From positions 16,058,142 to 16,122,141 of the forward strand of contig CAJINV010000001.1 of NCBI GenBank assembly GCA_905178155.1: a stretch of 64,000 nucleotides of DNA, written 5' to 3'. The notes under the pieces were generated by a model. It saw only the letters and a list, made by a program, of their open reading frames with translations, ran no database searches and had not been told where the DNA came from. Shown here one piece after another: positions 18,200-49,210 of the stretch. A program made the position numbers and the translations under genes. Each line of letters begins with the position of its first letter. Position 1 is the first letter of the stretch. Source of the stretch: Amoebophrya sp. A120. Its lineage: Eukaryota > Protista > Dinoflagellata.

Positions 18200-20500
18200 A
18201 ATAAGCGATCGGCAACGACGCATTCTTGGCCGTCCGCCCCCGCCCACCGAACACCGGACGGCTTTCAGAGCCCGAAAAAGCAGAGCCGATATAGTGCGCG
18301 CACAGATTGGCCTGACAATGGCAACTGGGCAAGCGCGTAAACTCGAGATGGTTCCGCCCGTCGGTATGGGCAATGGGCGGGCCGATTAGCGCAACGGACC
18401 GCACAGCGGGCAGGGCCCTACGCAGTTTTCTTCCACGAACGCGAGGGCGAGCGGCGCCGTCCTACACCGCGCGGGCCCGCACACTGGCGAAAGCACGGCA
18501 CCCCGGCAACCCGCGTGCCCGGGGGCCGAGCGCAATCCAAAATTGCGAACAGCCGAAGCGCAGGCGCGCCGGCCGTCGGAAATTGGGCAGGGCGCGGCAA
18601 GCCGGCGCCGCGCCCTGCGGCGGCCCGAACCCCAGCAACCCGAACGAAGGGCGCCGCGCCAAGATCGGGCCGGCAGGTGGTGGCCATACTGCTATCGGTG
18701 CTGTTGCTAGAAGTAGATGGCGAAGATGTCTCTGCTTATATCATTTCGAGCTCTCGCGTAGCTTCAATGGAGAAACGGCTGGCGCGAGGTGGTCTGGAAC
18801 CGGTCCGCTTAGCCTCCTCCTTGGCTTCCCGGATACGCTGCGCCTCCCGGGCGTATTCTTCTTGGCACTGCACCGGGATGCTGTGCACAAACCCAGTATG
18901 ACCGGGCAGCATTCAAGGCGTGCCGTAGACCGCCGAGCCAGCCCGCGGGCCTCTCGCCTAGAGTTCTCAGCTGCCCTTCCCAGTCGGAGGGAGCTTGCTG
19001 CGCCACTTGGTGCATCGTCTCACACTGAGCGCGGATTCCCATCCGGAGTTCAACACCACGAGGCAGATGCCTGCGGCCGGCGGAGAGAGGCGTGAAGCGG
19101 CGCTCCAGGATATCTGCCAGAAGTTGAATCAGGTAGGCCGCGGCCGCTGTTTCCCCACCATCCGCGCCGATGGTTGTGACATGCAGGCCGCCAAGGGTGT
19201 CGCTTTCGGGTAAAAATTCCTGCAAATGAGCCACCGCCGCCCGAGCCTGCTTGAAGGCCTTGCTCACTCCCGGAAGCCTGTCCCCGCGCTCGTCGAACTT
19301 GCGGACTCTGGTCGGCAGATTCACACTGCCACGCCCGTTGGTGAGCAATTGGAGAACCAATACTATCCAGCTGCTCGAGTGGTCGAGCATAGCTCTGCGC
19401 CTTTGAGTGCATTCGCATTCTTCGGCGAGTCTTCGCCGGGGCCGACGGGCACAGTCTTGCCACTAACCTCGCTGCACCGCTTCAACGCCCGCGCGATCGC
19501 GTTCGACACGTACGGCACGAACCCCGCGCCGGCAAAACACGCCAAGCGGGGGCAGCAGGCGCGGCCGAACCGGCCGGAGCCGGGGCCGCGGCCCTTCTCG
19601 CATACCCGCAGCTGCCCCGATGGGCATGCGCCACGGAGCCGCCGGCGTAGGGCGCCCGTGGCGCCGTAGGCCCGCGCGGCGCTTCAAGCCGCGCGCGCCA
19701 CCTTCTGCCGCCGCCTTTTTTTTCAGTTCGGGGGGCCGCCTGACGCGGTTCGCCAGCGTGCGCGCGCGGTCCGAAACCAAGCCCGGACCGCACCGGGGCA
19801 AGGGCCCGAACGGGCGACGCACTTTTTGGGAGAACTGGGGCCCCGCCTTCGACTCGCTGTTTCGGCGGGCGCCATTGCCACGCCCGCGCCCCGGCGGAGT
19901 GCCCCCCCTTTCCTTTTGCACACCCGGCGGCAAGCGGTCACGGCGCGGCAGGCTTTCCGCCATCAAGCTGGCGAACTTATTCGCGCACGCCGTCAAGATC
20001 GGAAGCATCTTGCGAAGCCTTTCCGTGGTCAGCGCGCCGTTGGCCACTGTGGCGGCTTTGGCGTGGCCCGTTTGGGCCCGCTGCCTTGCTCGCGGCTGCG
20101 GCTGTCGCGCCTTCGCCCCCGGTCGCGTTGCCGGCTTTCGCCGCGGCCCCGGGCCTCCGGGGAAGCTTATGGGCCCCGACCAGAGGCAAAGCAGCGAGAT
20201 AGATCGGCGCGAACCCCCCCGGGCGCATCCCCGGGCTTGGTGGCTTCCCGCTTAAGGGGCGCGGCAATCGCGCCGCGGAACGGCAGCGCTACGGCACCTC
20301 GGGCCCACGTGGCTCGCCAAAAGTGCCCCGAGGTGGCTCGCCCCCTAGGCACCAACGTCCTGGCTGCTCTCGAGGTCTTTGCTCGTAATCTCTGGCGTCT
20401 CCGCGATTCGCTCGCCGCCGCACCGCCGGCGCGCCCGCCGCACCCCAGAAAGTGCCCGCGCCAGCCTTCTGGATCTTATCCAAAGGCCCCATGCGTCTAA
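18200..20500 (-). pseudogene. Decayed gene/TE relic with GC-rich flanks and a protein-like core (about 18810-19400)
   Basis: Fragmentary protein-like frames (…AAYLIQLLADILERRF…, …RLRKMLPILTACANKFASLMAE…) embedded in very GC-rich sequence with no continuous ORF. Confidence 0.3.
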
Positions 20501-20917
20501 GAGGACTCGTATTATGAAGCGCGAAAGCCGCCCGCTTCAAACCAAAGACGAAAAACCTTGGCTAAAGAACACTGTGCTCCTGAACGGCAGCGCAATTCCG
20601 CGACGGCAATCGCATGCGCAATGCCACGACAGCACAACTCCCATCTCAAGTTTCCGACTTCCATACACATCCGTTTCCGAACTGGTACTCTTTGCCATTC
20701 ATCACGCAAGGGCGCCGCATAGCGGATCTGTTTATCTGACGCAGTGCCTTACAATGACCGTTATTTCCTTATCCTTCGTGGTTAACCGTGAAAATTATAA
20801 GTAGGTAAGCCAGTGCCGGAGTAAGTCTCACAGGCACGCTTCGTTGACCGAGAAAGTAAATGAGCGCGACGTGTGTACAAGTGTAGGAGTACATTGTAGC
20901 AGCGTTCATAGGCGGGT

Positions 20918-23900
20918 TCAGATTTCTACAGGTTTGGGGTTCGGATTACGAATATGCCGCATCGTCGCCCCGCCCGCCTGCGGCATGAACGGCGTGTGCT
21001 TACCATATGCCTTGGGCAGACCGTAGGCGCCTTCGGGAATGTACGCATTGACGCGGGGCTCTGCCGTGGTTCGAGTAACATTCGAATGCAAGATCACCTC
21101 CTCCTGCATGCGGGCCTGTAGGGTGCGTCATTTGAAAACGCATCGGAACTTGCAGAGTATGGACTTCGCACTTTAGCAAAAACACTTCGTCAGTCATATT
21201 CGACCACAGCTTCCGGTGCCCAACAAACAAATTACGCGGCACGAAATATTCAAATCACACAACATACCTTCGCCCGCTCCTGATCGGCCGCCCTTTGCGC
21301 CTCGAGCTGCACCAACTTCTGCAGCTCCTCTTCTGCGGTAGCAGTTGGTGGTTGGTTTTCCCGCAGACGGGCGCGCGCTTCGGCAGCAGCATCCCGGAGT
21401 AGGTTGGCTTCCTCGGACAGTTTCATACTCGTGGCCTGGTACATACTCAATTCGGAGACCGTAGCCATCATCTGTCGCGTAACTTCCTTCATCTTTGCCT
21501 GGAAAGCGTTCACCCGTTGCGACATCTTCAGCGTGGCCTGGCGCCCGTCAATGGCCTGCACCCGAAGCTTCTCGCTCAATGCGGTCACCTGTACGTTATT
21601 TTTTGCGAAAACAAATTCGCACATGATGGAAGCATTCCAGATTTAAAACCCGAAACCCTAATCGATACCGAAAAAAAATGAATGCACGAAGCGAACAAGT
21701 ACCTCTTCCACGATGAGCTCCTTTTCAAGAAGCTGTTCCTCCTTCGCATTTAGTCTCTCTTCCAGCCACTGTCTTTTTGCCATGAGTGTGTCTTTGTCTG
21801 GATCGGTGACCTGGCCCTCGCCAAGGAACCTCCACTTGCGTACCTGAAGATTCCAGAGTCGTCTTGTAGTTGTCTTGTTCCCCTTCCCAGACAGTGAAGT
21901 AAGTACTTAGATCTCTTGGGCAAAATAAGTAAGTAGAAGCTCTGTGGCCATTTGCATTTTTTCACAGAAGGAGCTCTAGACCACACCTTGCTGCTCGGGT
22001 TTTCCAACTCCGCAGACAGCGCGTCGGACTGTCGCTTCACGCCGCGCAGCTGGTCCTTTAATATCAGAACCTTCTCCGTATACTGGGCGGTGTCTTGTAT
22101 ACTTCGGTTCATGGAGACCTGTCGTGATATTGAGTCTCGTTAGATTTACCACATTAAGATCATCATCATATTTCATGTCCATTCTTAGTGCACGCTCGCG
22201 GCTATGATATTTCAAACCACAATCTGAACGGGCCACAATTGCAATACTTCTGATCATTCCCTCCGAATAAAACTACAACTGAACCTCCCTTCTATACCAT
22301 CCTCCTGTTAAGCGCCGCGAGGTCGATGCGGCAAGACCGGAGATTTTCCATTTTTTGCTGAATGGCCATCTCGCCTTTCTTCAGAAGCAGCTCCTGCACG
22401 TTCGACTTCTCCCATAGAATACACAGCTCGTCATTCCTGTCGATGAGCTGGATCCCGGTCTGGTTCCGCTGGCACACGGCGTCCTCGAACTTCTGTTTGG
22501 CCACGGTGATTTCTATGGAAGTGTCAGAATCGAAATTGACAAAATCGAAAAATTTCTGATGCATAAAATGTAGGGCACTGGAGGCCTGTATTGGGTAGCA
22601 GGCAAGTGAGACCGATTGGGAGCCTGTTTCGGGGTATACAATGTGCTGCCAGAGGAGCATGACAGGAGGAGCCTTCTTTGCCCAAACAGCATGACAGACT
22701 GGATTTGGGTGCTCCCGAAATTTGTCATGCGCCAGTTGGAAACTGAGGCTCCAACTGACATCGATTTTGTGCATCGCAAATTTTTCGACTTTGTCAATTT
22801 TGATTCTGACACTTCCATAATTTCCCGCTCCAATGTGTTGATCAACGCGTTCAGCTGGTCGATTTCCAGCACGTAGAGCTCCACGTTTTCGTTCGCCTGG
22901 TTTATCTTGTGCAGGATCCGAGTGAGCTCCAGCCGGTACGCGTCGCGCACCGCGCGCTGCTTCTTCGTCTGTTGCTGCGTTTCCGTGATGGTCTTGTCTT
23001 TCCCCGCGGATTCCAGTCTTAAAATCTCGATCTCGTTGCCCAGAACCTTGAAGCGCTCGCGCATCTCCGACAATTTTTGACTCGCGGCCTGGATCAGCGC
23101 GACGTACTTGTTGCGCTCGTTTTTCACCACTTCATACGCGGCGCAGAACTCCTTTTGCCGCTCCGTCACCTCGGCCAGCTTCTTTCGGAGGTCGAACTCC
23201 TCTAGTTGCTTCATCTGCACATTGTCCCACACCTCCTTGCTCAGCACCGTCGCGTTTTGCAGATCGCGGACCAGCTTCCCGTGCGCCTGCTCCACAAACC
23301 GCAGGTGCTTGCCCCAGTCGCTGTTTTGCCGCTTCAGGTTGGCGAGGTCCTGGCGGAGATCCTGCAGGCCTTGGTGCAGCGAGCTCAACTCCTCCTTCTT
23401 CTCCTTTTCGACGCTCTCCTGCTTCAGAAACGCGCCGATGAAAACGTCGACCTCGTTCTGAATCTCGTCTATAACCCGCTCAGCTGTTACAATCTCAAAC
23501 GTTACAATAAAATATGGAAATCTGTGATGCAAAAGATGGTGCATGACCTAACCTACTCCCACAGCATTGCGCATGACAAGTTCTGGAGTCCCAAACCGCA
23601 CTGGAATCTGGCGAAATTTGTATTGCAGAAAGTGGAACGCTGCGCGGGTCTGTCATGCTCATCATGCAATACAAAATCCAGATTCTATTGTAACGTTTGA
23701 GATTGTAACGTTTGAGCGGGTCATATCGTCCAGAAGCAGAATCTGCTTCTTGTTGTCCTCGGCTGCAGTGTTTTATTTACGAACGTTGCTAAAGATGATG
23801 GACTAGAAAAGTTGTTGCAGTGAATGAAATGGAAAAGAAACTCGCTCAGTACTTTCGGGTGGAAAGGAAATCACAAACCTACAAGTGAGAAAACAAGTAC

Positions 23901-25549
23901 AACTCTTTGCTATACACACTAAGTATCGTATAAGTACTTTTCAACTGTATCTCTTCGTCTAATTCTTTTTTCCTCGCAATCAAGGGCGGGATTTGGTGAC
24001 GCAGCTCTTTCACCGCCATTTCTTTCCTCCTGTAGTCGCGCTTTTGCCTTTCGAGCTGCTGCTCCTTCTTCGTTTTTTCATCCAACCCGTGTCTGATATC
24101 CTCGGAAACGATCCGCGTTTCCATGTCGATGCCAACTTTCTTGGCCAGCAGATCGGCGGAGGTGTTCCTCAGACGCTCGAGCTTTCGCTGAATTTCGCTG
24201 TATTCATCATTAACGGACACAACGGAGTCCTTCATGAGCTGAACGCGGAGCGTGGCCTTGCTTCGCTGGTCCTCTACTTTTTTTCGCTTCTTGATCAACT
24301 CTTCCGTGCGCGCGTCGGTCTTCTTCAAATCTTCTTGCACCTGATTAAGTCGGTTATTTTCGCTGTTTCGCCAGATTTATATTGCTTCGCGACTCCCCAG
24401 CGCAGCGTGAGCGTTCTTGATCGATGAAAGAATAGCATTAGCACAACATACACATAGGCATTGATTTCCGTGCTAGATTTACAAAAATCTATCCCAGTAC
24501 AATGTCGTCCGCGGCTTTCATGCTCTTCAAGACCGTTTCGAACTTTTCGACTTGCTTCTTCACTCGCCCTGGCTCGTTTTTTATCTTGTTTAGCTCCCGC
24601 TCGTGCTGCTCCATGTTTATTACATGCGTGGTCTCCAGGTCGTCCCGAAGCTGCGCTACACGCTCGAGGTCGCTGTGGTTTATTTTTCGGAAAAAATGTA
24701 ATGTCAACAGATGAAACGTACTGTACTTTAAACTTTTTCCCTTCAAGTTTTGTCAGCGCACAACCAAAAACGCCAGAAGGACTGATTATATGCAAGCAAC
24801 AACTAGTATAAGTACGCGTCTTTCTGTGCTTCTTTCTCCTTTTTGGTTATGTTGAGTTGGGCGATTTCTTCTTTTTGTAGGTGGAGAGTTGATTCCATGT
24901 TTTCCACGAGTGGTCGGAACGCGGCTTGTTCCGCCGCCTTTTTCGCGGCAATTTGCTCGACGAGCTCGCGGTGCTGTGCCTCCAGTTCCTGTGCCTTAAG
25001 ATCGTACGTCGCTTCGTCATCAAGTGCTGCTTCGAGCTGTTTGTCGAGCTCGCGTATTTTCACCCGTCGCGCATTCACCTGGTTCTGGTTGTCTTCCGCT
25101 TCTAGCAAGGCTTTTTCCATTTTTATCTTCTCCGCTGTTTTGTTTTTCATATTCCACCAATGGCATAAAGGGTGTGAACCCGTCATGCAGATCGATCTTG
25201 CACTCCATCAGAAACATGCAAAAAAAGTTATTTCCAAGTATCCAAATACTCCTTGTGCTTCTGTCGCACAGCGCGAGCACGTAAATTCTCAAAAATATAT
25301 ACCCATGAGTTTCGTGTTGAGTTCTTTCGCGGTCGACAGAAACTTCTTCTCGTTTTCGTAGATCTGCAGCACGCATTCGTGCTGCCTGCCGTATCGATCC
25401 TTGAGGATCTCCATCTGCTGCATGGGAATCTCACCATCCCGGGCAAGTTCGTCTAACACGTGAAACGCCACGGAGTTTTTTAGGCTCGTCTCGCCACCCT
25501 CGTCGGTTTCTTCCGGGTTCTCCTCGGAGTTCTCCTCAGCCTCCGACAT
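20918..25549 (-). CDS. CCDC146: Coiled-coil domain-containing protein 146 (MBO2-like flagellar protein), 11 exons
   Basis: Motifs KNERNKYVALIQ, GIQLIDRNDELCILWEK, KEEQLLEKELIVEEV and C-terminal TTAEPRVNAYIP…LPKAYG…PF.P…GATMRHIR.P…PVEI. Exons approx. 25549-25303, 25134-24816, 24672-24501, 24340-23938, 23762-23726, 23464-22820, 22508-22298, 22118-21987, 21843-21703, 21588-21268, 21115-20918. Eight GT-AG introns and two introner introns. Confidence 0.92.
22514..22819. mobile_element. Introner / MITE-like intron, family A (306 bp), in CCDC146
   Basis: About 55-bp TIR TATGGAAGTGTCAGAATCRAAATTGACAAARTCGAAAAATTT… with direct repeat ATTTC at 22509-22513 and 22820-22824. Removal restores …LERE-I-TVAKQKF…. 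Confidence 0.93.
23470..23725. mobile_element. Introner / MITE-like intron, family D (256 bp), in CCDC146
   Basis: TIR TATRACCCGCTCAnnnGTTACAATCTCAAACGTTACAATA with direct repeat TCGTC at 23465-23469 and 23726-23730. Removal restores …ILLLD-E-IQNEVDVF…. Confidence 0.92.
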
Positions 25550-26254: not shown

Positions 26255-29200
26255 TCATGTCTTCTTTGGTTTCACGCGGTGGGTAAATTCCTTCTGGGGA
26301 CTCAGCACCCGCAGGCAGTTTAACGCCCCGCACGGCCACAACCGGACCGCCACGTGAGTGGCCCGCCGGGCGGAAAACCCCTCAAAAGTCATGGTCGAGC
26401 CGGCGAAGGACTTCGCGTATCGCTTTTCGCAGAGTCGCTCAAAGTGGCCCGCCTGCAGCAGCCGCGCGCCCTGTCCCTCGTTTCCCGCGTCGGAAGCCGC
26501 CTGGGACAGCATGAGACCGCGTTCCAGCATCTGTTTCTCCTTCATTTTCCCGTCCTCCCCCTCCGTCCAATCCGTCGCAAACACCTCGACAAACTCCGCC
26601 ATATCATGAAAACTGTGGGAGAAGTCCAGCTCAACGCGTGAAATCGTCACGGGCTGCACCGTGTCGGTGGCGTTATTCCGGTCCCGCGCCAGCACCACAA
26701 CCAACACCGAGCCCTGCCCGACCGCCTGGTTCCTTTGGCGCGGGAACAGGATCCCGCGCTCATGCGTGAAGGGGCATTTCGGGTAAGAGACAAGGGGTAA
26801 ATATCGGGCCGGGACGTTGTCGGACAAGAGCGCTGTTGAGGATTCCTGCATGACCGGCTTCCCGATCTCTTGCCGGGCGAAGTCTGGAAACAGCACCAGT
26901 GCACCCAAATCGGAGGACGCGACATTCACCAAAATGTCGGCAACTTGCTCCGGTGGTCGCTTGTTCATCTGGGCCAGTGTATTTGCTGTCAAAAGCTGCT
27001 GGTTCAAGACGAACGTTCGTCTTTTCCGGAACGCGTTGGCCGAATCGGTGATGTCGACGGCCGGCTCCTCGTCCTCCTGTTCGAGTTGTTCCACTTTCAA
27101 TCGATCCTTCAGCAACCTGACGTCTTGCGCACTACTATATGGGGACGCCTCAGCCTCCGTGTAGGCAGTCGCTTTCGGGTTCTGCAGAAACGCCTTCCAC
27201 GCAGGGACATCCGCAACGCCAGCGGTATTTCGCCAATCGGAGTTTTTAGTACCGTTTTTATCCGCTAAAACTATCTCAACCAAATCCTTTTCTGCAAACA
27301 GTGCGATCCGCGCAACGCCGCCGTCCGGAAACATGCGCAACTCGAACTTCGTGCGGTTACTGCCTTCGTGACAGTCCTGCTTCGCGATGTTGTAGAGAAT
27401 TTTGCCGTTAATCCGCATCCAGTGCTGCGCGTTCGCAACCGGCTCTAGGGCGCGAGGGAGCAAGTCCACGTATTCTTTCTTCTTATGGTCAAAAACGCAG
27501 AGGAACACCCGCTCGGGCAAGTCTCCACTTTTTACAAATCCCGTCGAGAGGAAGAACATCCACGACGCGGTGTCGGCCGTGCTCGCGTTCCACAGAGTGT
27601 CTTTCCCTTCCACGTCGAACCTGACATAGTCAAACTTCGCCGGGTTGTGTCGGCGCGTGCACCAGGAATCGTAGTCGACGCTTGGAAAGAAGGGAGAAAA
27701 CAAGTTTTCCACTTTTCCCAGCGTCCCTACGTCAGTGGCGTCGGCGATGATTAAGTCAGACGCTGGGTTGGTGAAAATCTCTCCACCTGTGGTCCTACTG
27801 CGCTCGTCCTGCTGCTGTGATGAAGAGGCGTGCATCATAATTAACTGGTTCCTGGGCCCGCGGTCGTGTTTGCTTCGCTCGTCGCGAAGAAAGTCCTTTG
27901 CCTTCATCGGACAAACTTCCTTACTGATCAGCTTGCCAAAGAACCGCTGCTGAAATTTCTTCTGAAAAGTAAACACTTCTTCCCGCACCGCGGCCCCCAT
28001 CGCGTCTAGATCGGTGGAGAACTTCTCCTTTTTCGTTTCTTCACTTCCTTCTTTTGTCTTTCCCTCGCTCTCTACTGCAATTGCCGCTGTTGTATTGCCA
28101 GAAGTTGCAGCACTGTGGTCTTCCACGGCGGCTGCTTGCTCTTTCTGCTTCCGGCCCGCGAAGCCGAACTTGGAGCTGAAGACGGAGGTTGCGCAGGCCA
28201 CCCAGTGCTCTTCTTCAACGATCGTTGCCGCCACGTCGACCAGACAGGATAACCGCGCGCCCGCGTTGCAGCAGATCACACAGCCGCGACCGGAATCGGG
28301 TCCTTGGATGCAGAGGAGAAACAGGCCGCAGTGACCCTCGTTGGAAAAGTGCTGCATCACGAACTTTGCGTTGTCCACCCGATCGAAGCCCCGCGCCAGC
28401 AGCACCGCCCCACTGGTCGCGCCGTCGATCCCGGCCTGGCGCATGGCCTCGGAAGTTTCCTGGAAGTGGAGCTTGTCCCACAGCATTCGCGCGCCCTCGT
28501 GCGAAATTGCCGCAGATTTTTCATCAACGATACTGTTCCCGAACCCGTTGCACATGTTCGCCAGCAACCGACTAAACGCGAGTGGCGTCGCAATCGCGCC
28601 ACCCGCAAGCTCCGGGTACTGCAGCATCAACCGTTTCGCGGTGCTCGGTTTACTCGGGTCGTAATCTACCGGATGCCCCAACGCCGCGTAGGGCTCGATC
28701 GCGTCGCTCTCGTCGTCGTTTTCGTCCGCGACCCCCGGGCCGGTGGGAACCTCGTCGCTCATCCGGGCCTTGTTGACCCGGAAGCCCAGTTCGCGCACGT
28801 TGTTGCGCGGTTCCGCGAGCCAGGGCCGCAGAATGTCGTACATCGATGTTTTGTCCGGGGAGTGGAAGAGTTCCAGCAAGTATTGCAGGACCAGTGCGCC
28901 CGCCGGCGTCGGCTCGTACGCTTCCCGCGGTTCCCGGGCGACTGCTAGCTTGTCGTACCCGAGTTCCTCCGGTGCCTTTCCCCTCATGATGTCCAATACA
29001 GACGGTTTGTCGTCCTTGAGACCGCGGCCGACGAGCGGGCCGGCGCTGAGCACCGCGTGGCCCGTCAAGTCGCGGAGCCGCACTTGGTCCCCCGCCCCGG
29101 TCGCGCCCGCCAGGTCGGGCAGCACGTACGGTGCCCGCATCGCTCGCAGGATGTCGTTCACCGGCGTGTTCGCAAATAACTCAAACAGGGACCGCGGAGG

Positions 29201-32200
29201 CGGCGGGGGCGGCTCCTCCTCCTCCTCGCTCTCGTCCAGCGGCTTTTCCTTGATTTCGTAAAACAGGCTCTCCAGCTGCTCCGCCACCTTCTCCGGGAGC
29301 TCTCTCCGGTCCAGGGAGAGTTGCTTTTCCACGAAGAAGGCCGCGGCAAGAAGCTGCGAGAAACTGCCGAGTGAGAACAGCGTGTCCGCCCGCATGTGCT
29401 TCCGCGCGCTGTGGTACAAAAACCCGGATTTCCCGGCCACCACGGGCCGCTCGGGGAAGGAAACTTTTGGCAACGTCGGGATGAAATTGCTCGTGGTCAC
29501 GTAGTGCCTTCTAAACGGTTCAGCTTTGTCCGCGAAGCTTTGAAACGCGACCTGATCCGGTATACTTGCGGACGCGGCGGCCGAGCGCGGAGGCGCCTTC
29601 CGACGCACCATCATCCCCACATCGAGCGGACTCGCGTCCAGCGCGGCGTCCAGCGGCCGCAGCAGACTGACGCTGATCCCCGGCACGCCGTGGTTGCGGA
29701 CGCACCCGTCCACGGCGCGCTGCAGCCGCAGCCACCGGAAGGGCAGGTTCGTCAGGAGCCGCTGCAGCCGCTCGTGCAACGCAGTCTGCAGCAGGCCGCG
29801 CACGCGGGTCTGCAGCTCCGGCTTCAGCCCCCCGATGCCCCGGAGCTCGTGCCGCGTCTGCTCGTCAAACACATTCTCCTCGTCGAAGGGGAAGCCGCGG
29901 CGCAGCACGTCGAACGTGATGCCCTCGTCGACTACGAGAAAGCGCGAGAAGTCCAAGCAGTCGTGCTCCGAGCGAAACGACCCTCTGCCGCCCTCAAACA
30001 CCATGGCCTCCGCGTACTCCGCGCACAGGTAGACGTTTTCCATGTACCACACCTGCTCCGCGAGGGGGTTCGCAACCGAGGTCCAGTAGTGCCCCGGCCA
30101 CGCCTTCGCGACCAGGTCCCACGGGTCCGCGAACGTGTCCGCGTTCTCGAAGAGCGCGTCGTAGAGGAAAATGGTCAAGTACTCCTGCACGGAGTTCCGG
30201 CACACCTTGTCGCACACCAGCTGCACTAGCAACTGCAGCACCACGCGGTACCAAGGCTTGGTCCGGGAGGTGAATCGCAGCACGGTCGCGTGGTCAATCA
30301 AGTCCGGCAGCGGCGTCCCCTCGTCCTCCGTGCCCGCCGGCGGGTCGTAGGGGGTGATGAGACTCACGCGGTCCAAGTTTCGGTACTCCTCGAACAGCAT
30401 CTGCAGGAAGGTGTTCCGCGGTAGACGGCCGTGGTGCACCTCCAGCCACAGTTCCATGCGGGCCTTTTCCAAGCTCGCCAGGTCGTAGTACCGCAGCACC
30501 GCAATCGGGTCGCTGTTCACCTGGGCCCACACCGGCCGCACGAACTCCGGAAACCAGAGCGTGGTGAAGTCCCGGAAACAGGTGTAGTAGCACAGGTACT
30601 GCAGCGCCTCGCGGATGCTTTTCCGCACCTCTTTCTCCACGTACCGCAGCTGGGTCTTCGCCTTCCGCGGGTCCTTGCTCTCCACCTGCAGATTCTCGTC
30701 CAGAAACAAAACTTCGCGGGTGACCTCGTTGCTGCCGATGCCGTCGCGCTCGACCGGCCCCGTGATGCCCTGCACCTCGGCGCCCTGCTCCTCGTCCGTT
30801 TCGGCGTCCTCGTCCTCGCCCATCTGCGCGAAGAACATGATTTTCTTCAAGTGCCGCCGCACCACGTCCAACCGCCCGTCCCACAAAAAGGGGTTTCGCG
30901 ACCGCGCCGTCACGCTCTTCAGCAGCGCGTAGCACACCTCCAGCGCCTCCTGCTTGGCCTCCGTGAATTCCGTGGGGTCGTCCAGCCACTTCGTCCGGGC
31001 CTGCCAGTATCGCGAGTACACATCCCAGACGCACAGCCCCGGGCGGACGTAGTCTTGCGCGTAGCAGCAGAACCCGTCCAGCCCCGCCTGGACGTGGGCC
31101 ACCACCTCGCGGACCAGTTCCAGCATCACCACGACGTCCGATGCGATGCGCTCCTCCGACTGCGCGTCCAGGTAGGGGTTGAACAGCTCGGGCCCTCCGG
31201 GGGCAACGCTCTTCATTTTGCCCGCCAGCGTTTGCGACACGGCAAACCCGCAGAGCGCGAAGTGGGTGCCCGTGGCAACCAGGTCCTCGCCGACCATCGA
31301 GCGCAGCCACACGCGCTGCATCTGCAGCCCCTGGCGGAGCCGCTTCTCGTCCGTGCGGCGCAGCACCCGAAACAGCGGGTCGCGCCGCTGGGACCGGGCC
31401 AGCGCCGCGAAAAACTGGTCGGTGGAACCCAGCCCGACGCTGACCACCACGTCGCTGTCGGCTGTGGTTGTGTTGTTTCCGCGTCCGAGCAGGTCTGCGA
31501 CGGCCGGCACCGCGTCCAGCAAAAATCGCGGGTGCTCGCAGGTGACAGCCAACTTGACTTTCGGAACAGCTTTCTTCACCGCCACCGCCTTTGACGCCAG
31601 CCCGCGCAGCTTGCCAAGGCCCCCAACTTGCGGCTTGTTTGCAGCAGAGGCTCTATTCCCAGTTCCGCTTGTCCCGGTCGGCAGTAGCGCCAACGCACTG
31701 TCGATCAGGTTGCGGACGTACAGGGCTTCTTCGCGCGAGTGCAAGTTGCCCACCTCGAAGGTCAGCTCCGCGAGGTCCTTGTTGTGGTAAAGGAGCAGGC
31801 AAACGCAGTACAAGTGCAGCGGCAGTGGGTCGCGCCCGTCCACCAGATGCCACCAGTCCGCCAGCTCGAGATCGGGCAGCCGCGTTCGCAGCGCCGCTTT
31901 CTTCCGCTGATCACCTCGCAAATTCGGCGTGGTCCCGTGCAGACAGTAATGCAAACCCTGGAGGCACTTGGCTACCGCCGTCACGTCGCCGACGCAGGCG
32001 TCGACGTTGGCGCAAAACTTCGGCAACAGCGCGGATTTCGTGATCACTTTGCTCACCTCCGTGACCTCCTTGTCCTTGCCCGCGTGGGCCGTCGCGAGGC
32101 CGTACTCCGGCTCGGCCTCCAGCGGGCCGGCCGCACCCCGGAAGCTCACAAAAACACGGTCGCGGTTCACCTTCCGCCGCGCCATGTCGCGGATGCTGGC

Positions 32201-32857
32201 TTTCTGGGCCCGGTCCTCGATGGCGTCGAGGTTGCGCTCCTGCATACCCTTCACCGCATTTCGGCCCGCCCCCGCGAAAATGTTCGTAGCACTGGTTTTA
32301 TTCGCGGCTGCTGCTCCCAGCATCACGGACTTGGTTTGTGTGAAGGCGGGATCTCCACCGTCCTTGTCCACAAGTCCCAGGTACTGTCGCTTGAAACTCG
32401 CGACTTCGTCTGCCACCTCGGGGTAAACCGCTTGAAAAATCTTCGCCCTTTCGGAAAGCGCGGTCTCCAGACGCGCATCTTCCCGCTCCAAGCACGCCGG
32501 CGCGCGCCGCGGCCGCGGCGGCTTGTCGTACGCATCGTCCCAACACGTTTCGTAGGCGTCGCTTTCGTAGTCCCGCGACTGGTTGCGGGCGACGCAGAGT
32601 TGCGTGCGCGCATCTAACTGCTCCGCAACCACCTCGCGCTGCAGCAGCAGCAACGACAGGGCGCCAGCGTTGGCCAAGTAAACTCTGCGGACGTACGCAA
32701 GTACCTCCTCCTTCTCCCACCGGTTCAGCTCCTTATTGGAGCTGATCTTCTTGTGAATTTTCCAATTTGTCCCGACCTCTTCGTACTCCCCCCGCGCCAG
32801 AGCCGCCTCGAGCACCCTGGGCGCTAGCTGCCGCTGATAACTCGTCACGTCGTCCAT
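26255..32857 (-). CDS. About 2,200-aa fusion protein: malate synthase A-like domain + beta-lactamase-fold (serine hydrolase-like) domain + two allantoicase repeats
   Basis: Intronless ORF. Malate synthase-like: RLPDLELADWWHLVDG…LLLYHN, FEVGNLHSREEA, REVVAHVQAGLDG, VRKSIREALQYL, YDLASLEKARMELW, EYLTIFLY. Beta-lactamase-like: HGVPGISVSLL, ADTLFSLGSFSQ, YPELAGG, HFSNEGH, GRGCVICCN. Allantoicase-like: DSWCTRRHN, LRMFPDGGVARI, VELDFSH, THVAVRLWPCGALNCLRV. Confidence 0.8.
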   Translation of the reverse strand: MDDVTSYQRQLAPRVLEAALARGEYEEVGTNWKIHKKISSNKELNRWEKEEVLAYVRRVYLANAGALSLLLLQREVVAEQLDARTQLCVARNQSRDYESDAYETCWDDAYDKPPRPRRAPACLEREDARLETALSERAKIFQAVYPEVADEVASFKRQYLGLVDKDGGDPAFTQTKSVMLGAAAANKTSATNIFAGAGRNAVKGMQERNLDAIEDRAQKASIRDMARRKVNRDRVFVSFRGAAGPLEAEPEYGLATAHAGKDKEVTEVSKVITKSALLPKFCANVDACVGDVTAVAKCLQGLHYCLHGTTPNLRGDQRKKAALRTRLPDLELADWWHLVDGRDPLPLHLYCVCLLLYHNKDLAELTFEVGNLHSREEALYVRNLIDSALALLPTGTSGTGNRASAANKPQVGGLGKLRGLASKAVAVKKAVPKVKLAVTCEHPRFLLDAVPAVADLLGRGNNTTTADSDVVVSVGLGSTDQFFAALARSQRRDPLFRVLRRTDEKRLRQGLQMQRVWLRSMVGEDLVATGTHFALCGFAVSQTLAGKMKSVAPGGPELFNPYLDAQSEERIASDVVVMLELVREVVAHVQAGLDGFCCYAQDYVRPGLCVWDVYSRYWQARTKWLDDPTEFTEAKQEALEVCYALLKSVTARSRNPFLWDGRLDVVRRHLKKIMFFAQMGEDEDAETDEEQGAEVQGITGPVERDGIGSNEVTREVLFLDENLQVESKDPRKAKTQLRYVEKEVRKSIREALQYLCYYTCFRDFTTLWFPEFVRPVWAQVNSDPIAVLRYYDLASLEKARMELWLEVHHGRLPRNTFLQMLFEEYRNLDRVSLITPYDPPAGTEDEGTPLPDLIDHATVLRFTSRTKPWYRVVLQLLVQLVCDKVCRNSVQEYLTIFLYDALFENADTFADPWDLVAKAWPGHYWTSVANPLAEQVWYMENVYLCAEYAEAMVFEGGRGSFRSEHDCLDFSRFLVVDEGITFDVLRRGFPFDEENVFDEQTRHELRGIGGLKPELQTRVRGLLQTALHERLQRLLTNLPFRWLRLQRAVDGCVRNHGVPGISVSLLRPLDAALDASPLDVGMMVRRKAPPRSAAASASIPDQVAFQSFADKAEPFRRHYVTTSNFIPTLPKVSFPERPVVAGKSGFLYHSARKHMRADTLFSLGSFSQLLAAAFFVEKQLSLDRRELPEKVAEQLESLFYEIKEKPLDESEEEEEPPPPPPRSLFELFANTPVNDILRAMRAPYVLPDLAGATGAGDQVRLRDLTGHAVLSAGPLVGRGLKDDKPSVLDIMRGKAPEELGYDKLAVAREPREAYEPTPAGALVLQYLLELFHSPDKTSMYDILRPWLAEPRNNVRELGFRVNKARMSDEVPTGPGVADENDDESDAIEPYAALGHPVDYDPSKPSTAKRLMLQYPELAGGAIATPLAFSRLLANMCNGFGNSIVDEKSAAISHEGARMLWDKLHFQETSEAMRQAGIDGATSGAVLLARGFDRVDNAKFVMQHFSNEGHCGLFLLCIQGPDSGRGCVICCNAGARLSCLVDVAATIVEEEHWVACATSVFSSKFGFAGRKQKEQAAAVEDHSAATSGNTTAAIAVESEGKTKEGSEETKKEKFSTDLDAMGAAVREEVFTFQKKFQQRFFGKLISKEVCPMKAKDFLRDERSKHDRGPRNQLIMMHASSSQQQDERSRTTGGEIFTNPASDLIIADATDVGTLGKVENLFSPFFPSVDYDSWCTRRHNPAKFDYVRFDVEGKDTLWNASTADTASWMFFLSTGFVKSGDLPERVFLCVFDHKKKEYVDLLPRALEPVANAQHWMRINGKILYNIAKQDCHEGSNRTKFELRMFPDGGVARIALFAEKDLVEIVLADKNGTKNSDWRNTAGVADVPAWKAFLQNPKATAYTEAEASPYSSAQDVRLLKDRLKVEQLEQEDEEPAVDITDSANAFRKRRTFVLNQQLLTANTLAQMNKRPPEQVADILVNVASSDLGALVLFPDFARQEIGKPVMQESSTALLSDNVPARYLPLVSYPKCPFTHERGILFPRQRNQAVGQGSVLVVVLARDRNNATDTVQPVTISRVELDFSHSFHDMAEFVEVFATDWTEGEDGKMKEKQMLERGLMLSQAASDAGNEGQGARLLQAGHFERLCEKRYAKSFAGSTMTFEGFSARRATHVAVRLWPCGALNCLRVLSPQKEFTHRVKPKKT

Positions 32858-34953
32858 CGTTCGTGTGTTGTGTCGCTGCAACGCTTTGGAGAGGGAGCAG
32901 TGCAGGCAGCACAGGTCGACGTGACGCGAGCAACATTAGCAAGAACGAATCAACATAATCCGTCTGGCTTCTCTGCTTTTGTCATCCGATAGAATCGCGA
33001 GGAAATGAGTTGATGCTTTTCATGCTAGCATATCTGTTATCTTTAAGTTGAAATCAAGTCGGGGGCATTTCTTCATGCTGGCGAGCAGCTGGTACAACCT
33101 TGTGTAGTACCGAGCAAGTAACTACGCACATGATACAGAATAGGTCCACGCTTCTGGTTGAGAGGAGGTTAATATCAAATCTTCACAACTGAGGTCATTC
33201 CCCTGTTCACTTCCATCTGATGTAAAATCTGTGCAGCTGCTGCAAAACCAGAGACTAGCGCGAAGAGCGACGACGTAAAACGAAGGAGGACGAATAACGC
33301 GATTTCTGAACGATATAAAATGAGTACACGCCACGAGGCTCTTGACAGCAGTAGCACGATTTTTCAATATTTCAGCCCGCTAGGCGCAATGAATTTATGT
33401 GGACGACGAGAAGGCACGCAACAAAGAAACACAAGGAAACGAACGAAAAAATGATCCGGAAATCTCACACAACCAAGGCGAAGCAAAGGCCCCCGTTCAT
33501 GTGACAGTTCTATTTTCCCGCACCAACATGCTTCGACAATGATGCAAAAGCTTGACCATTTCATGCCTGCGATTCCTCGTCGCATCGAGGAGAACACTGA
33601 ATCCAATAACATGCTGAAGAACACGACTGACTTTTTCTAAACCACATGTATGTCAGTGTGGCGCTCAATCACTTAAAGTCATTCTCATCTCGTTCCTTAG
33701 CAACATTCTGGAGGTTGTACTTACCCCTAAATGGTTGTTCTCATACCGTCTCCCAGTACTTTCGCTGAGGAGGACTTTTGAGATGCAAATTATATTCGTT
33801 TGCGTATAGATATGTTTTTCGTGGTGGAACCCGGAAAACGCGGAGCCTTGATCTCCAGAGTCCGTGCTTTCTTCCTCGCCAGCAGGTCGGACTGAGCTTC
33901 TGCTTGGCGTGGACCTGACAAAAAGCATGGTGGTAGCGTTGCCAAAACGAGGTATAAACTAGTTTACTTTTCATGACTAAAAGTTTTTCCCTTGTTGCTA
34001 TAGGTTAAAAACTTTTTCATGCCTCAAATCAAAATCAAACCAAATGGCTTTCAAGTTGCCTAGTGCAACTCGAGACTCTACCCAGGGCTAGAAAGGAAGT
34101 CCCATAGAGAGTCACGGCAAGACAGTCATCGCTAGGGTCTTAGGGGCAGAATTCTTGGATATCTGTGCTACACCCCGACCGAAGCCTATATCTCTCTGCG
34201 AGTCAACAACGAACTCTCACAGCAATCAACAACGAGCATTCTACAGTAGTTCAAAACTTTTTGTGCGGGGCGACAAACTAAAACAAGCCTAAAAAAAGGT
34301 TCTTGTCTCTGCTTCTCGCTATGAGGCTGTCAAATAAACATAAATCGGCTAAAGAATTTTGTTGGTGCTATCGTAATAAATTCTCAATTATGCGTGTTCT
34401 GACGACGATGCTGTTGTCTATAAAAAAACTGCTTCTTCGCTTACAGCTCGCCGACTATTAGACTGATCACAAACCACGGACAACAATCAAGGCCTCGTTG
34501 GTCGTACAACTACTTCCCGGTGGCAATAACATGTACGAAATTTACATATCCACCTGATAGTACCCAAGTTTCCTTCTTTTTATTCATCTCGTCTTTTTCA
34601 ATTATCCACGGCGGCCGGCGTCCGAAAAGCAGCAAAGGGAGTGCGCTATCAACTGCAAACCAATCTATCTGTGTCTGGAAAATTGCAAAATTGTGTGTAG
34701 TGTTGTCATGCTAAGCACCTCGGAAGGGAGCTGAGCATTTGCCAATGCACGCACACCACCTCGGCGCTTGGAAAATGTCGCCAGACTCAGCTACCCTGCC
34801 GACTCATTACCGGTTTGTTGAGAGGCGAAATTCAAATTAACCTCACACAGGTTGGCTAATTTGTTTCTCATGCAAAAACACGATTTGCTCTCGTGTTAGA
34901 ATTGCAACTTGGATATTGCTCAAAGCTGCTCAGGCGAACTAAAAGTCCTTATT

Positions 34954-37900
34954 TCATGATGACCCTATTAGCAACGCAAGTCTAGTACTCTCGCACTTTT
35001 CCAGACTCAGAGATATCATTGCAGTCGATACGAAGTCATCGAAGTCCGTGTTAGAGCCAACGCGGAATTGACCCAGAGACTCACTCCTGTCGCTCTGGCT
35101 CTTCCCTTCTCCAAGTAACCGACTCGGAGCAAGCATCTCCTCCATCGTAGCATGGTGGAGCTGGTCCACCGTCGTCCACGCCTCTGCGTGATCACTCCCT
35201 CCCAGAACATGTGCCCGAGTCGCTCCTTCTTTGATTGGCAAATACACCGTCGTTGCGTCACGAGAGCCCTCTCCCATCCCCGTCCCGATTAGCACTGCTT
35301 TTGGTCCGTCCGGCAGTAGCGTGGCTTGGACCAGGCCTAGTTCGGCGTTGAAGCGCCGGTCAAGGCGGTCCTGTCTTAACATTTCTCGGGCTTTCTCCAT
35401 GGAAATATTTCCGTCCTCGACAAAGTCTTCGATTGTGAATTCAGGATCTCCCATGTTTCTCCACTTAGGGACATCCCCTTCTGCTGGGTCCTCATCATCC
35501 ATTATGTGACACAGAAAAAAACGCGCGCATCATTGTTGTATATGCACTAAAACATAAATATTTGTTCTGTCGAAAGTCAGTACGTATCATGGAGCCCAAA
35601 CCATGCCGCTTTGTTGAGATATGCAACTTGGAGGTGCGTCTCCCTCTCCTTGTAGTAGAGTAGTTGTAGTCTGTTCTTGCATTACAAGAGATGCGATAGG
35701 GTGCCTTACTTTTTTCTCTGAGATACAGGAAATGGAGTTTCATGGCAGGGGTCGCTAGACTCCACCGTCGATTGGCGCTAGCAAGATCTTGGTCAGTCAG
35801 CCATTTTCTCGTGAAGTCGTACACCGACTCCATTGACCCCCCGGCCACCAGCCGAATAAACTCTTGCACTTTTGCGTACGGAAAACGCAGCGTAGTTTTG
35901 TAATGGAGCTCCAATAAAGATCGCTCGGAAAGCTGCTGGCTTATACCTGCACCCACCTCGACGGCGTTCCTGCCGCCCATTTTGCGCCACAGCAACTTGA
36001 AAAACCGCTGCTCAACGGCCGCGCAGTGTCGCCTTTCTGGGCTGCCTTCGTCCGGGCCTCCAAAAGCTTCGCAAACACGGTCTAGGATGCGCGTCTGCAG
36101 CGTTTCGACGATAAAGGCCCATTCGTTCGCGGCAGTCGCATCGATAATGGCGTCTGTTCGAAACGCTATCAGGTTTACGACGCCACATGGGTAGATGAAC
36201 TGATCCTCTCCTTGCTTAAGCTTCGGCTCCGAGTCGTCGAATCGCTTTCCAAAGTACCTTTTGATAAGCGCTTGAATCAGGCCTTTGTACAGTGCTTCAT
36301 GGTCTTGAATCAGCGCAACAACGGGCAAAGGACCAGACTGGCCCTGCGGCGGAAAGTAAAAGCGAAACTTCGTATCAAAGCGAAAAGTGCCCGACCTTCA
36401 GAACAACAAAATAATTGTCGTGCAAAGTTCCGACTACGACCCAAACACACAATCCCCTTCGTCGTGCAAAATATAAATTTCTACATGGAAAACTCTGCAA
36501 CTACAAAAAAGAAACTTTTTGTGAAATCCGACGCGTTTTGTTTCAGAATCTATTCGAGTTTTCCAGCTCTAATCAATGGCATGACGTACACTGTGCTTGT
36601 GCGCACCACAGTTTCTCGCTATCATCGATTTAAAATTGGTGCTGCTGACCAAGAGTTTTCTGCAGAGAAACTTTGCTTTAGAAACATTCCCCCTTTCTTC
36701 TGGAAAGGCGCTTTTCTTCTTGATACTTCGCATGGGTGCGCAGAGCGAGGCCAACTGCGCGACTTACGGACTTCTCGGGGACTACGTCGCTGCTACTTGG
36801 CAGCTTCTGCAAAAACTCGTTATGGACGAGCGCTTCCACTGCGGTCGCGAGTGTGCCTCTGCCATTCGGGACCATTTCTTTTTGAAGCCGGAGCACAAAC
36901 TGCCCAATACTGTAGGGCCCTCGGGCTTCTGTCTGCAGGCGTGCGAGATACCGCGACTCTGCCCCGGTTCCGTCATCAGAGGCGGCATTTCCACGACCCA
37001 GAAAATGCTCAGGAAGGTCAGTCCCACTGCAGGTGTCCGGCGTCAATGCACAAAGTAGCGTCCATGGGGTTGTCCAAATTTCCGCACCGTCTCCTTTGAA
37101 GAATAACGGTAACTCGTCCGCCGACTTGGATTTGCCAAGCACCTTGTCATACACAGATGGCCACACAGTGAGTTTTTCTTTGAGCCCTAGTTGTTGCGGC
37201 GTGGGCGGGCTTCGCAAGATACGCAGCGACTCCAAACACGTGAGGCTTTCCTCAACCTTCTCCGCTAGCCCTTCGGCGGAGAGCTCGCGTTCCGGTTGCA
37301 CAACGTCCAACTTTTCCGGAGTAAATTCAAGCTGGAGGCAAGCGGGGGCGCGATAGGCAGTCTTCATCAGACGAAAGTCGGTCTTCATAAACCTTGCCGC
37401 CAGCTCGGTGTGTGCCATAGTGTTGGCGAATTGGTTGCTGTGAACGGTGACTGAAGGGAACTCTGCTCCACCCATGCCCTGCTCCAGCAATACCGGCCTC
37501 TGCGTCTGGGCTACTTTCTTCAGGTCAGCACGATCGTCCGGGCCCAAAAAGGATTCTTCGAGCGCATCGCCGTACGTCAGGTCCACTTGCGTTGGCAGCT
37601 GGAGTGCGGCTGGAACGCCATCTCGATCCGGAACGAAAGCACGACCAAACTCATGCAGAAACGAGCGCAGCAAGTTCAGCATGTGTGTTCGTGCGGCCTG
37701 CACAGCCGGCAGTGCGTCCTGCCTCAACTGTCGCAAAAATCGCGCTACCACCACTAGCATCACACGTCGACGGTGTAGGTCTTCCCAAAAAACGCCAAAC
37801 CGCCTCAGATTTCTGTATCCCACAGGAAAGAAAAAGGATAGTCATAGTGTCAGCGTATAATGCAAAAATAGTTTACCAATTCTCTAAGTACTTTTACACA

Positions 37901-44400: not shown

Positions 44401-45455
44401 AACCAACCATACTTGTCTCACAACCAGCCTTACTTTTCGCGCCAACACTTAGTCCTTTTGCCAACAGTTTCACGCCCACATCCAACCCCAGAGTTGTCAT
44501 GCAGATCTGCATGCGCAGGAGCATTTGTAATGCGCATCCCCATGAGAGGCATTTCCCAGCGTATTTTGGAACTTGTAATGCTGTAAACAGGGTCGGGAGA
44601 TGGATTTGCTATGCGGCTTCCCTTGCTAAACTGCATTACACTACAGCCTGCAACTTGTCATGCGTGGCTCCCAAAACTTCGAGGTTTGTGTTGCAGAATC
44701 CCCAGCTTGACTCTGGGGTGGGGACGTTTTTACAAATGATACGTGTCCGGGTAAAAGTCGATAAACCTGCGCACCGTGCGCTCCACAAGCTCGTACCGGA
44801 TCGCGTAGCCTCGGTGGATCAGCGGTGCCCGCCGTTTGATGCTTTGTGCGCCAGTCAGGTTGGGTGCCTTCGGGACGGACGACGCGGTGGCTTGTTTGCC
44901 CTTCGGTACGACGAGCGCTTTTTGTTCCGCGCCGGGGGCCACCAGGTCGTGGCTTGAGGTTCCAGTAGGCGTTTCGGTTCTATTCTTCGTGGTCGGAGAC
45001 GAGGATGCAGCTCCAGCTGCCGGGCACTGGCGACGCGCTACTCCCGCCGAGCGCTTGTCTTCGGTGCGCGGGCTGCTGCCGCTTGAAGGTTCCCACGAAT
45101 CCAGGCCTCCTTCCTTGTTTTGCTCTTTTCTTGACCCTTCCTCCGCTTCGGCATCTTTGTCCGTAATATCGGGCCTCGGTTTATTTGCGCTACTACGTTT
45201 GTGCTGCGTACTGCGTTTGCTGCCTCTTTGCGTCCCGCGATTCTCCGGAGTAGACACGACACCGGGGGGTGAGGCCGCCTTCGCCGGCCGCGTTGCTGCC
45301 CCTACTTCCTCGAACGCGAAGTACTCAACCCAGGGATCTTTGAAATACCCGAAGCGCACGGTGGAGGCCTTGGACACGATGGAGCTGTCGTTTGTTAGCT
45401 GAACACACATGGCATCTTGCGTGCCGCCAGCGGCCGCCGAAGTGGTTGACGCCAT
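41494..45455 (-). CDS. TYW4: tRNA wybutosine-synthesizing protein 4 / leucine carboxyl methyltransferase 2 (LCM domain + Kelch repeats)
   Basis: Motifs VQLTNDSSIVSKAS…GYFKDPW, RRAPLIHRGY, QIIVLGAGFDTLYWRL, VELDFPD, AEVVLCYL and EPFDEFEEWH, followed by Kelch motifs (HGGFG, VLGGRTSP, VFGGRG, LFGGLD, GGGGNLFSFGT). Two exons (45455-44742, 44031-41494) are split by an introner. Confidence 0.92.
44037..44741. mobile_element. Introner / MITE-like intron, family B, compound (705 bp), in TYW4
   Basis: TIR TATCMTKTGTAAAAACRTCCCCACCCCAGAGT with direct repeat CGTGT at 44032-44036 and 44742-44746. Removal restores …FYPDT-ATQIIVLGAGFD…. Confidence 0.93.
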
Positions 45456-46080
45456 GCTTTGTTTTCTTCGATTCTGTATCGCGAGGAAAAGTAGAAAGAA
45501 GAAAGTGAAGCGCTATATGTCTTGTTCGGGGTCTACAACTGCTACAGTAATTATCCTCACGCGAGCCTGGGGACAAGTAGGATGGAAGTTCTCAGTTCTT
45601 GTCGCGGACAATCGCGTTTCGCATCGACAAATCAAGGCATTGCAAACATTGCTGGAGATGATCGTGTGCTGCCTTTCAATCAATTTTGATCGGAAAATGC
45701 CGACGATCCTGCGCCGGGATCATTTCTTTTGCTTTGCGTCCTCCGGTCGTTGGTACTGGAGCTCGATGGCGTTTTTCAAGGAGGTGATATGTGTTCTTTT
45801 CTTCGCAGCGGAACGATAACGGGCAGTATAGATCAAATGAGGAAGATGAACAAACTCGATGATGGACCTTATCAGTTCATTGGAGATGCATCAGCAATGC
45901 GAGTCTCTAAAGAATTGCAAGCCTCTGTCTTAGGGCAGATCTTCCGGCGGGGCCGAATGCGAAGCATTTCTGAATAGCGCAGGGATCATTCACGAATCGA
46001 GATCGCCGAAAAGAGGGGGGGCGCTTTGGATCTAAGAACGCGCGCAGACTGCGGGATCAATGAGAACAAGGGCGCAGGCC

Positions 46081-48650: not shown

Positions 48651-49210
48651 GTAGGGCTTCGCGACATGCCAGTAACAAGATCAAAATGAGCGCTGCCGTT
48701 CAGTGCAGAGAAACCACGTGCAAAGATCAAATGCGTTCTGAGCAAGTGACAAAGCTTCCTATTGTAGGCGATCCTCATTCCGTGCAATGCATACTAGAAA
48801 ATGAGTTGATGCTGGAGAAAATAAAGGGATGATCAATCGAATTGCGAGCAACCATGCGAGGATCTCTATCAGCGAGATCAGCGTAAAGATCGAAATTCCG
48901 CCGCTCTTCCGTCGTACTGAGTGTCGAAGGCAGCTGCAGAGCCAACGGCTCAAAGTCTTCGATTCTCAACCCAGCGCACACAGGTTGGTCAGACAATACC
49001 TATCGCTCTTGAACGTAGACATTCATACTACACTGCAGAATTTGGAGTAGACCTTCACTGACCGAATACAGACATGTGCCGCCTTCCCGCGGGGAACTGC
49101 TTACCTTAGGACTCATTGCTACACTTGTAAGTAATTTACCCCGGCTCCGCTGCTGTTATTTATTTCTATAAAGCGCAGAACGAAGTGGGCCTCGCCCGGA
49201 CAAAGAACGC

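Follow-up and report, generated by a model that had tools for sequence, protein, structure and literature searches.

We describe here a single open reading frame (ORF) of the dinoflagellate Amoebophrya sp. A120 whose product appears to be a diverged member of a family of ureide polyproteins, composed in order of a malate-synthase-like (MS-like) domain, a 2-oxo-4-hydroxy-4-carboxy-5-ureidoimidazoline (OHCU) decarboxylase, a beta-lactamase-fold domain and allantoicase. The ORF occupies positions 26255..32857 on the minus strand of the 64,000-nucleotide stretch of contig CAJINV010000001.1 that was analysed (the window), and encodes 2200 amino acids (aa) free of stops. Our preferred interpretation, to which we assign a probability of roughly 0.6, is that this gene is a conserved and transcribed, likely largely non-catalytic pseudoenzyme copy of a polyprotein predicted to perform four steps in its intact relatives. 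Against the family profile the protein matches from end to end with collinear matches (E = 9e-61), the MS-like, beta-lactamase-fold and allantoicase modules fitting the profile and the OHCU decarboxylase module being unrecognisable. The preliminary description of this DNA had read one ORF with a malate synthase, a beta-lactamase fold and two allantoicase repeats, an arrangement upheld by the family profile, Pfam and Foldseek; to it we add the OHCU decarboxylase module of the family, the decay of the allantoicase sites, and a motif-intact copy represented by the Amoebophrya protein P0008.

The polyprotein family and its genomic setting

Querying 1.84 billion proteins by phmmer with aa 667-1866 returned 53 matches, and in 12 of the 30 family proteins scanned Pfam recognises all four domains, ordered malate synthase, OHCU decarboxylase, beta-lactamase, allantoicase. 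Members beyond Amoebophrya are 1500-1780 aa in length, with polyproteins of approximately 1550 aa in Bdellovibrionota and protists, and we found no published name for this four-module family. Scanning 185,579 genomes yielded 288 loci, the best 80 of which (mostly Bdellovibrionota, with some Chlamydiales, Myxococcota and Planctomycetia) were taken for an analysis of neighbours within 10 kb. In these the fusion lies beside a PuuD-type urate oxidase at 57 loci, 5-hydroxyisourate (HIU) hydrolase at 60, XdhB at 23, AllA at one and a true allantoinase at none. The lone allantoinase-like neighbour was rejected, as it shows 26% identity and sits in an apparent pyrimidine-degradation operon. The link to purine catabolism that had been proposed, along with the suggestion that this architecture be sought in bacterial purine operons, is thus borne out by fusions adjoining PuuD, HIU hydrolase and xdh genes. 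A further 80 metagenome loci of the family gave no AllA and no AllB match.

Fifty of the 80 genomes, picked for their long contigs, were also searched genome-wide, and possessed PuuD in 49 cases, AllB above cut-off in one, AllA in one, and PuuE or the ureidoglycine cupin in none; two sub-cut-off AllB matches were examined and found to be a dihydroorotase and a dihydropyrimidinase. The xanthine-to-glyoxylate pathway is therefore short of two genes, for allantoinase and ureidoglycolate lyase, and since the fusion has two unassigned modules these can be paired with the two steps. In intact relatives the OHCU decarboxylase would make (S)-allantoin, the beta-lactamase-fold module would open the allantoin ring, likely via a Ser acyl-enzyme with Lys and Tyr (whose roles we take to be those of class C enzymes), allantoicase would give urea and ureidoglycolate, and the malate-synthase-fold module would likely split the latter into glyoxylate and urea with no malate formed. 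Overall, an intact polyprotein would convert OHCU to glyoxylate and two urea.

Variants of the architecture were also seen. In P0012 the MS-like and OHCU part is broken and the middle and allantoicase modules are intact, P0042 has an altered middle module, an intact allantoicase and an SKL end, and an 888-aa ORF (L150:6962-9628, also in L151) combines an intact beta-lactamase-fold module with a C-terminal part that by eye resembles a PfkB sugar kinase.

Assignment of the MS-like and beta-lactamase-fold modules

The pairing of modules with steps draws on domain swaps and co-occurrence. The one fusion genome with AllA (L003) carries a gene that has no MS-like part: allA immediately precedes a 747-aa beta-lactamase-allantoicase gene, OHCU decarboxylase, PuuD, HIU hydrolase and xdhABC adjoin, and allantoinase is the sole unfilled step of the pathway. 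The MS-like family also exists in a stand-alone form of about 680 aa, and AllB, allantoicase, OHCU decarboxylase and HIU hydrolase are all neighbours at 3 of 20 Myxococcota MS-like loci, from which the beta-lactamase module is missing; part of that gene set is present at one further locus, and no purine gene lies near the other 16. Across 401 Myxococcota genomes allantoicase was found in 46 of the 53 with an MS-like gene. The 98 allantoicase-positive genomes have the MS-like gene only (46), AllA only (25), both (0) or neither (27; P = 7e-9), and counting seven weak AllA matches produces a single genome with both. Among the first 80 of these 98, AllB is present in 63 and the beta-lactamase module in one (two weaker module matches were seen besides), such that AllB occurs in 62 of 79 allantoicase-positive Myxococcota lacking the module versus 1 of 50 fusion genomes (Fisher, 9e-20).

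Sphaeroforma, Amorphochlora, Phaeocystis and Mallomonas each possess the beta-lactamase-fold module as a stand-alone protein, and Symbiodinium has a partial one. Of 68 such stand-alone members that pass a length and completeness filter, 38 end in a tripeptide of the peroxisomal targeting signal type 1 (PTS1), compared with 0.3% at internal positions, which fits a peroxisomal pathway. The window copy has no PTS1-type end.

Because the N-terminal domain swaps with AllA and MS-like proteins of animals are ureidoglycolate lyases (PMC10120013, in the excerpted text of that paper), the MS-like domain rather than the middle domain is likely to supply the ureidoglycolate step. From comparative genomics we consider it likely that the middle module of the intact family acts as an allantoinase, and fairly likely that the MS-like module acts as a ureidoglycolate lyase. 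The middle domain had previously been offered for either allantoin ring opening or the ureidoglycolate step: the first suggestion gains from the near-absence of AllB and PuuE from fusion genomes, and the second gives way to the exchange of the MS-like domain with AllA. The same exchange and the animal lyases speak against the proposed purine-to-malate channel. An intact member scores only 147 against the malate synthase A family cut-off of 594, and 21 of the 49 genomes with an MS-containing fusion have a separate canonical malate synthase A, the other 28 showing none.

Domain by domain decay of the window copy

The malate-synthase-A-fold domain of the window protein (aa 2-926; 30080..32854, minus strand) was delimited by family alignment, hhalign and Foldseek. 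Pfam, NCBIfam and PDB sequence searches of the protein gave no malate synthase match (neither PF01274 nor TIGR01344), whereas hhalign to the family returned a probability of 99.87% (E = 1.4e-31, 663 columns) and tblastn with a bacterial family member as query reached this part at E = 3.6e-18. Of two AlphaFold models (mean predicted local distance difference test, pLDDT, of 69 and 70), the one covering this part displays the TIM barrel and C-terminal helical domain of malate synthase A, and its top Foldseek match is the E. coli enzyme (E = 7.8e-8); as the models are driven by family alignments, such fold matches are not independent of the sequence match. R326, E441, D480 and D792 align with E. 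coli malate synthase R166, E250, D278 and D447, which we take to be the catalytic Arg, the Mg2+-binding Glu and Asp, and the catalytic Asp, so the retention of the R/E/D/D set previously seen by eye is confirmed. D286 and M548 are also retained. The His of the family's WHD, the Trp of GFWVAHP and the Cys of GNGCV (equivalents of Trp365 and Cys438 for the last two) are gone, and at the malate synthase A motifs GRWDY, DGTWxAHP and GNGCV the window copy reads GSTDQ, DGFCCYAQD and FRDFT. The R276 and W365 equivalents are both replaced, inside a domain that is generally decayed: 79 of 226 covered family-invariant positions are kept, and 26 of 51 charged ones.

Where the family has its OHCU decarboxylase, the window copy has a helical linker (approximately aa 927-1045; 29723..30079, minus strand) that is no longer recognisable as a decarboxylase. 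The profile of this enzyme, a helical domain with a conserved His, matches neither the window copy nor P0008, hhalign of the linker to OHCU decarboxylase gives a probability of 0.6%, and the linker is modelled as helical with a pLDDT mostly of 37-61 beyond aa 950.

The beta-lactamase/DD-peptidase-fold domain that follows (approximately aa 1050-1580; 28118..29710, minus strand) contains long inserts and was identified by the family profile (86 bits) and by Foldseek, which matched the model to the R61 DD-peptidase (E = 1.2e-8; template modelling score 0.70 of target). Pfam on its own is weak here (E = 0.003-0.05, below cut-off), and neither Pfam nor NCBIfam detects an AllB/PuuE-type amidohydrolase or polysaccharide-deacetylase fold in the window protein. 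The fold of an SxxK serine hydrolase is present, and the S-x-x-K motif and catalytic Tyr are not. By alignment the family's SLSK reads SFSQ (S1165-F-S-Q1168; 29354..29365, minus strand), YSGGG reads EPTPAG with Pro in place of the catalytic Tyr, and HQxANDGFR reads QHFSNEGHC. This agrees with the earlier reading of SFSQ and of a lost Tyr motif, and with the warning that the middle domain might be non-catalytic here, as Lys, Tyr and HQxAN are all lost. Only 26 of 64 covered family invariants remain, and in the orthologue P0003 the motif is G-F-S-H, the Ser having gone too.

Two allantoicase repeats complete the protein, repeat 1 at approximately aa 1705-1862 (27272..27745, minus strand; Pfam and alignment) and repeat 2 at approximately aa 1978-2188 (26294..26926, minus strand; profile and alignment). 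Pfam PF03561 matches in two stretches (E = 7e-7), and Foldseek pairs the model with yeast allantoicase (E = 1.5e-13). The D-x-W/F-E-x-x-R motif of yeast Dal2, which we take to be catalytic, is absent from both repeats. In repeat 1 DSWExxRH has become DSWCTRRH, with WCTRRHNP (Cys for Glu) common to all three Amoebophrya orthologues, and in repeat 2 DGxESxRSR is lost and ERGILFPRQR stands in its place. Repeat 2 also carries an insert of about 45 aa that is strongly conserved with P0003. The repeats keep 17 of 26 and 12 of 27 covered invariants. In the window copy, then, no decarboxylase can be recognised, the key residues of the middle and allantoicase sites are gone while their folds persist, and the protein would most likely serve as a pseudoenzyme scaffold or ureide-binding partner next to a motif-intact copy.

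Transcription, Amoebophrya relatives and trees

Among the contigs listed for run X1 (6 of 14; presumed to be RNA), unspliced contigs cover most of the ORF with no splice joint across it, and those of the gene downstream are spliced. Unspliced cover beside a spliced neighbour fits an intronless transcript, in accord with the intronless ORF originally described. A contig of run X1 covers 32858..33191 (minus strand), a likely 5' untranslated region, although contigs of this kind cannot show strand or start; 33308-34041 and 34776-35500 are without cover. G+C content at third codon positions is 0.79 in the ORF against 0.56-0.67 in six neighbour genes, a difference not counted as evidence of transfer.

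By phmmer the nearest relatives of the window protein are Amoebophrya P0003 and P0004, with P0008 more distant. P0003 is 39-55% identical over approximately 1170 aligned columns and has new motifs in common with the window copy, from which we conclude that selection maintains the gene and that it is no pseudogene. As far as the gene models extend, P0003 has the same losses and P0004 the same allantoicase losses. P0008, by comparison, retains 58 of 64 middle-domain invariants and 25 of 29 and 23 of 29 in the allantoicase repeats, has both SxxK and Tyr in place, and would therefore be a second, motif-intact Amoebophrya copy as judged from its residues. Bacterial members retain at least 88%, 92%, 93% and 66% of invariants in the four recognisable domains. 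The window copy and P0008 are alike in having a long insert after an SLLRP strand, and in lacking the OHCU module. As annotated, P0008 starts at position 540 of 660 of the MS profile and so is without the TIM barrel; the C-terminal piece that it does have is well kept (29 of 49 invariants).

In trees a long branch leads to the window copy and P0003. A 20-row tree groups the two with P0008, P0047, L001 and L003, split from the other 14 at 98/98, and a clade joining window copy and P0003 with P0008 and P0047 is tolerated, not established, by the approximately unbiased test (p-AU 0.5); a 59-row tree was built by a quick method only. From these relationships we infer a putative duplication within the lineage. 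One member of the cluster of P0047, the sister of P0008, is labelled as a copepod (Oithona nana), and a parasite in that assembly is possible.

Searches for other relatives gave little: ESM Atlas yielded no usable match for aa 1-900, a word-index search returned solely the window's own protein, and scanning metagenomes turned up no relative of the decayed copy. Where the MS-like domain would be expected, residues 1-260 of P0003 are instead a piece of an ABC transporter, probably through a mis-joined gene model, and P0004 is partial. With no metagenome relatives either, N-terminal residues are not comparable among the orthologues.

Evidence against the preferred reading and alternative explanations

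Several observations weigh against the interpretation given above. The co-occurrence counts ignore kinship, the AllB comparison spans phyla, and most genomes counted are incomplete metagenome-assembled genomes. Among allantoicase-positive Myxococcota 17 of 80 have neither AllB nor the module (PuuE was not searched there) and 27 of 98 have neither AllA nor the MS-like gene, implying that other unrecognised enzymes exist; in the latter 27 a further ureidoglycolate enzyme may have escaped recognition. One genome (G036) carries both the fusion and AllB, and a dihydropyrimidinase encoded in some fusion genomes might be able to open the allantoin ring. The intact family keeps W365, which is changed in the zebrafish lyase, along with M330, C438 and all four malate synthase catalytic residues, and has R276 replaced by W and W277 by H (E. 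coli numbering); with R276 lost and the others kept, residues alone do not decide between lyase and malate synthase. The intact copy is known from P0008, and its presence in the window's own genome is presumed. Lastly, five core MS-fold residues of the window copy (D286, R326, E441, D480 and D792) are kept, with a chance of about 0.035-0.07 at the 26/51 rate, and a fully dead domain would not need them. We regard this as marginal evidence for a surviving N-terminal site, whose Mg2+ centre may be the only one in the window copy still able to turn over.

A division of labour, with the window copy a working ureidoglycolate lyase whose other sites are dead and the second copy supplying allantoinase and allantoicase, would account for these residues and for M548. 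It would also suit the missing TIM barrel of annotated P0008, and the absence of an MS-like match from P0047 and from members of its cluster, which run to as much as 1085 aa. We nonetheless think it unlikely, though deserving of attention: MS-like invariants are retained at 35%, a rate that does not exceed that of the other decayed domains, the equivalents of the WHD His, Trp365 and Cys438 are gone, and the well-kept MS C-terminal piece of P0008 suggests that its gene model may simply be truncated.

Divergence of all modules, new conserved inserts common to the Amoebophrya orthologues, the missing PTS1-type end and the CFAP58-like gene next downstream (a weak Pfam match) might instead point to a protein that has left purine metabolism for a structural, e.g. 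cytoskeletal or flagellar, role in the parasite. Gene order in this genome need not imply joint function, however, and the kept Arg-Arg-His of the allantoicase part and acids of the Mg2+ site would fit ligand binding, so we consider such a role improbable. Least probable of all is a working channel from purines to malate, in which the malate synthase would be genuine and the middle domain would perform the ureidoglycolate step, a reading that could appeal to the malate synthase catalytic residues kept in family and window copy, to the decay of ureidoglycolate without an enzyme (PMC10120013, excerpted text) and to the 28 of 49 genomes without another malate synthase A, but is opposed by a middle module that stays where AllA is present (L003) and goes where AllB is present, by the mutual exclusion of MS-like gene and AllA, by W and H at E. 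coli R276 and W277, and by the decayed middle and allantoicase sites of the window copy.

Returning to the pseudoenzyme reading, we put the following combined scenario at slightly better than even: the beta-lactamase-fold hydrolase would be a third class of allantoinase, peroxisomal in many protists; the four-step fusion of predatory bacteria would include a bacterial ureidoglycolate lyase of the 'malate synthase' type; and an Amoebophrya duplicate would have been kept as a pseudoenzyme or lyase-only partner.

Neighbouring genes

Directly downstream of the ORF, at 22292-25549 (minus strand), is a coiled-coil gene with a weak CFAP58 Pfam match and, per run X1, two GT-AG introns. The region 18300-20800 is 64% GC and has open frames overlapping on both strands with no obvious protein. 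At 41494-45512 (minus strand) a gene combines leucine carboxyl methyltransferase with Kelch repeats and is presumably TYW4/LCMT2-like. Further frames encode HIT-domain (4790-5635, minus strand), ankyrin-repeat (49172-50341, plus strand) and KH-domain (59530-60753, plus strand) proteins.

Significance and comparison with known systems

The intact family offers candidate genes for two pathway steps that are without a gene in many predatory bacteria and protists. If our assignments are correct, the beta-lactamase fold would gain a chemistry new to it, that of a serine-hydrolase allantoinase, which would be the third kind of allantoinase; likewise, the malate-synthase-fold lyase, a 2023 finding reported as eukaryote-only, would have a prokaryotic counterpart, and many 'malate synthase' annotations would need correction. 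For assays of these activities the window gene is the wrong member; its interest lies in being a probable large pseudoenzyme of several domains that is maintained by selection in a parasite. Among the literature matches listed, none dealt with the fusion or with an allantoinase of the beta-lactamase fold, subscription journals lying outside the coverage.

The closest parallel to the MS-like module is the zebrafish malate-synthase-like protein (DrMSL/UGL), a ureidoglycolate lyase without malate synthase activity (Dembech et al., PMC10120013, in its excerpted text). The two are alike in the malate synthase A fold, in co-occurrence with allantoicase and uricase, in the replaced R276, and in the reaction that we propose for the family; at the family level we found both co-occurrence with allantoicase and replacement of AllA, as expected of a ureidoglycolate lyase. 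The zebrafish group is reported in that text to be eukaryote-only and stand-alone with W365 changed, whereas the present family spans bacteria and protists, occurs as fusions or as stand-alone proteins (about 680 aa), retains W365 and reads W-H at positions 276-277.

The known allantoinases AllB (TIGR03178, a metal amidohydrolase) and PuuE (TIGR03212, metal-independent) fill the slot between OHCU decarboxylase and allantoicase that is predicted for the middle module, and show a near-exclusive distribution with it. The fold is unrelated, being that of SxxK serine hydrolases (class C beta-lactamase and R61 DD-peptidase), with the motif lost in the window copy and the activity predicted. The excerpted text of PMC13751858 names allantoinases of the metal-dependent and metal-independent kinds only, and the word 'lactamase' does not occur in it. 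Relative to allantoicase (yeast Dal2, PDB 1O59/1SG3; TIGR02961), the window protein is alike in its two jelly-roll repeats and in the W-x-x-R-R-H and PDGG of repeat 1, and differs in scoring 30 bits against the TIGR02961 cut-off of 278, in having lost the Glu of both repeats and in its large inserts.

Finally, allantoin synthase, the group of HIU hydrolase-OHCU decarboxylase fusions (PMC13751858), likewise joins consecutive urate-pathway enzymes, and channelling is undemonstrated in the fusions reviewed in the excerpted part of that paper. The polyprotein described here is built of other modules, and would serve a later part of the pathway and span four steps rather than two.

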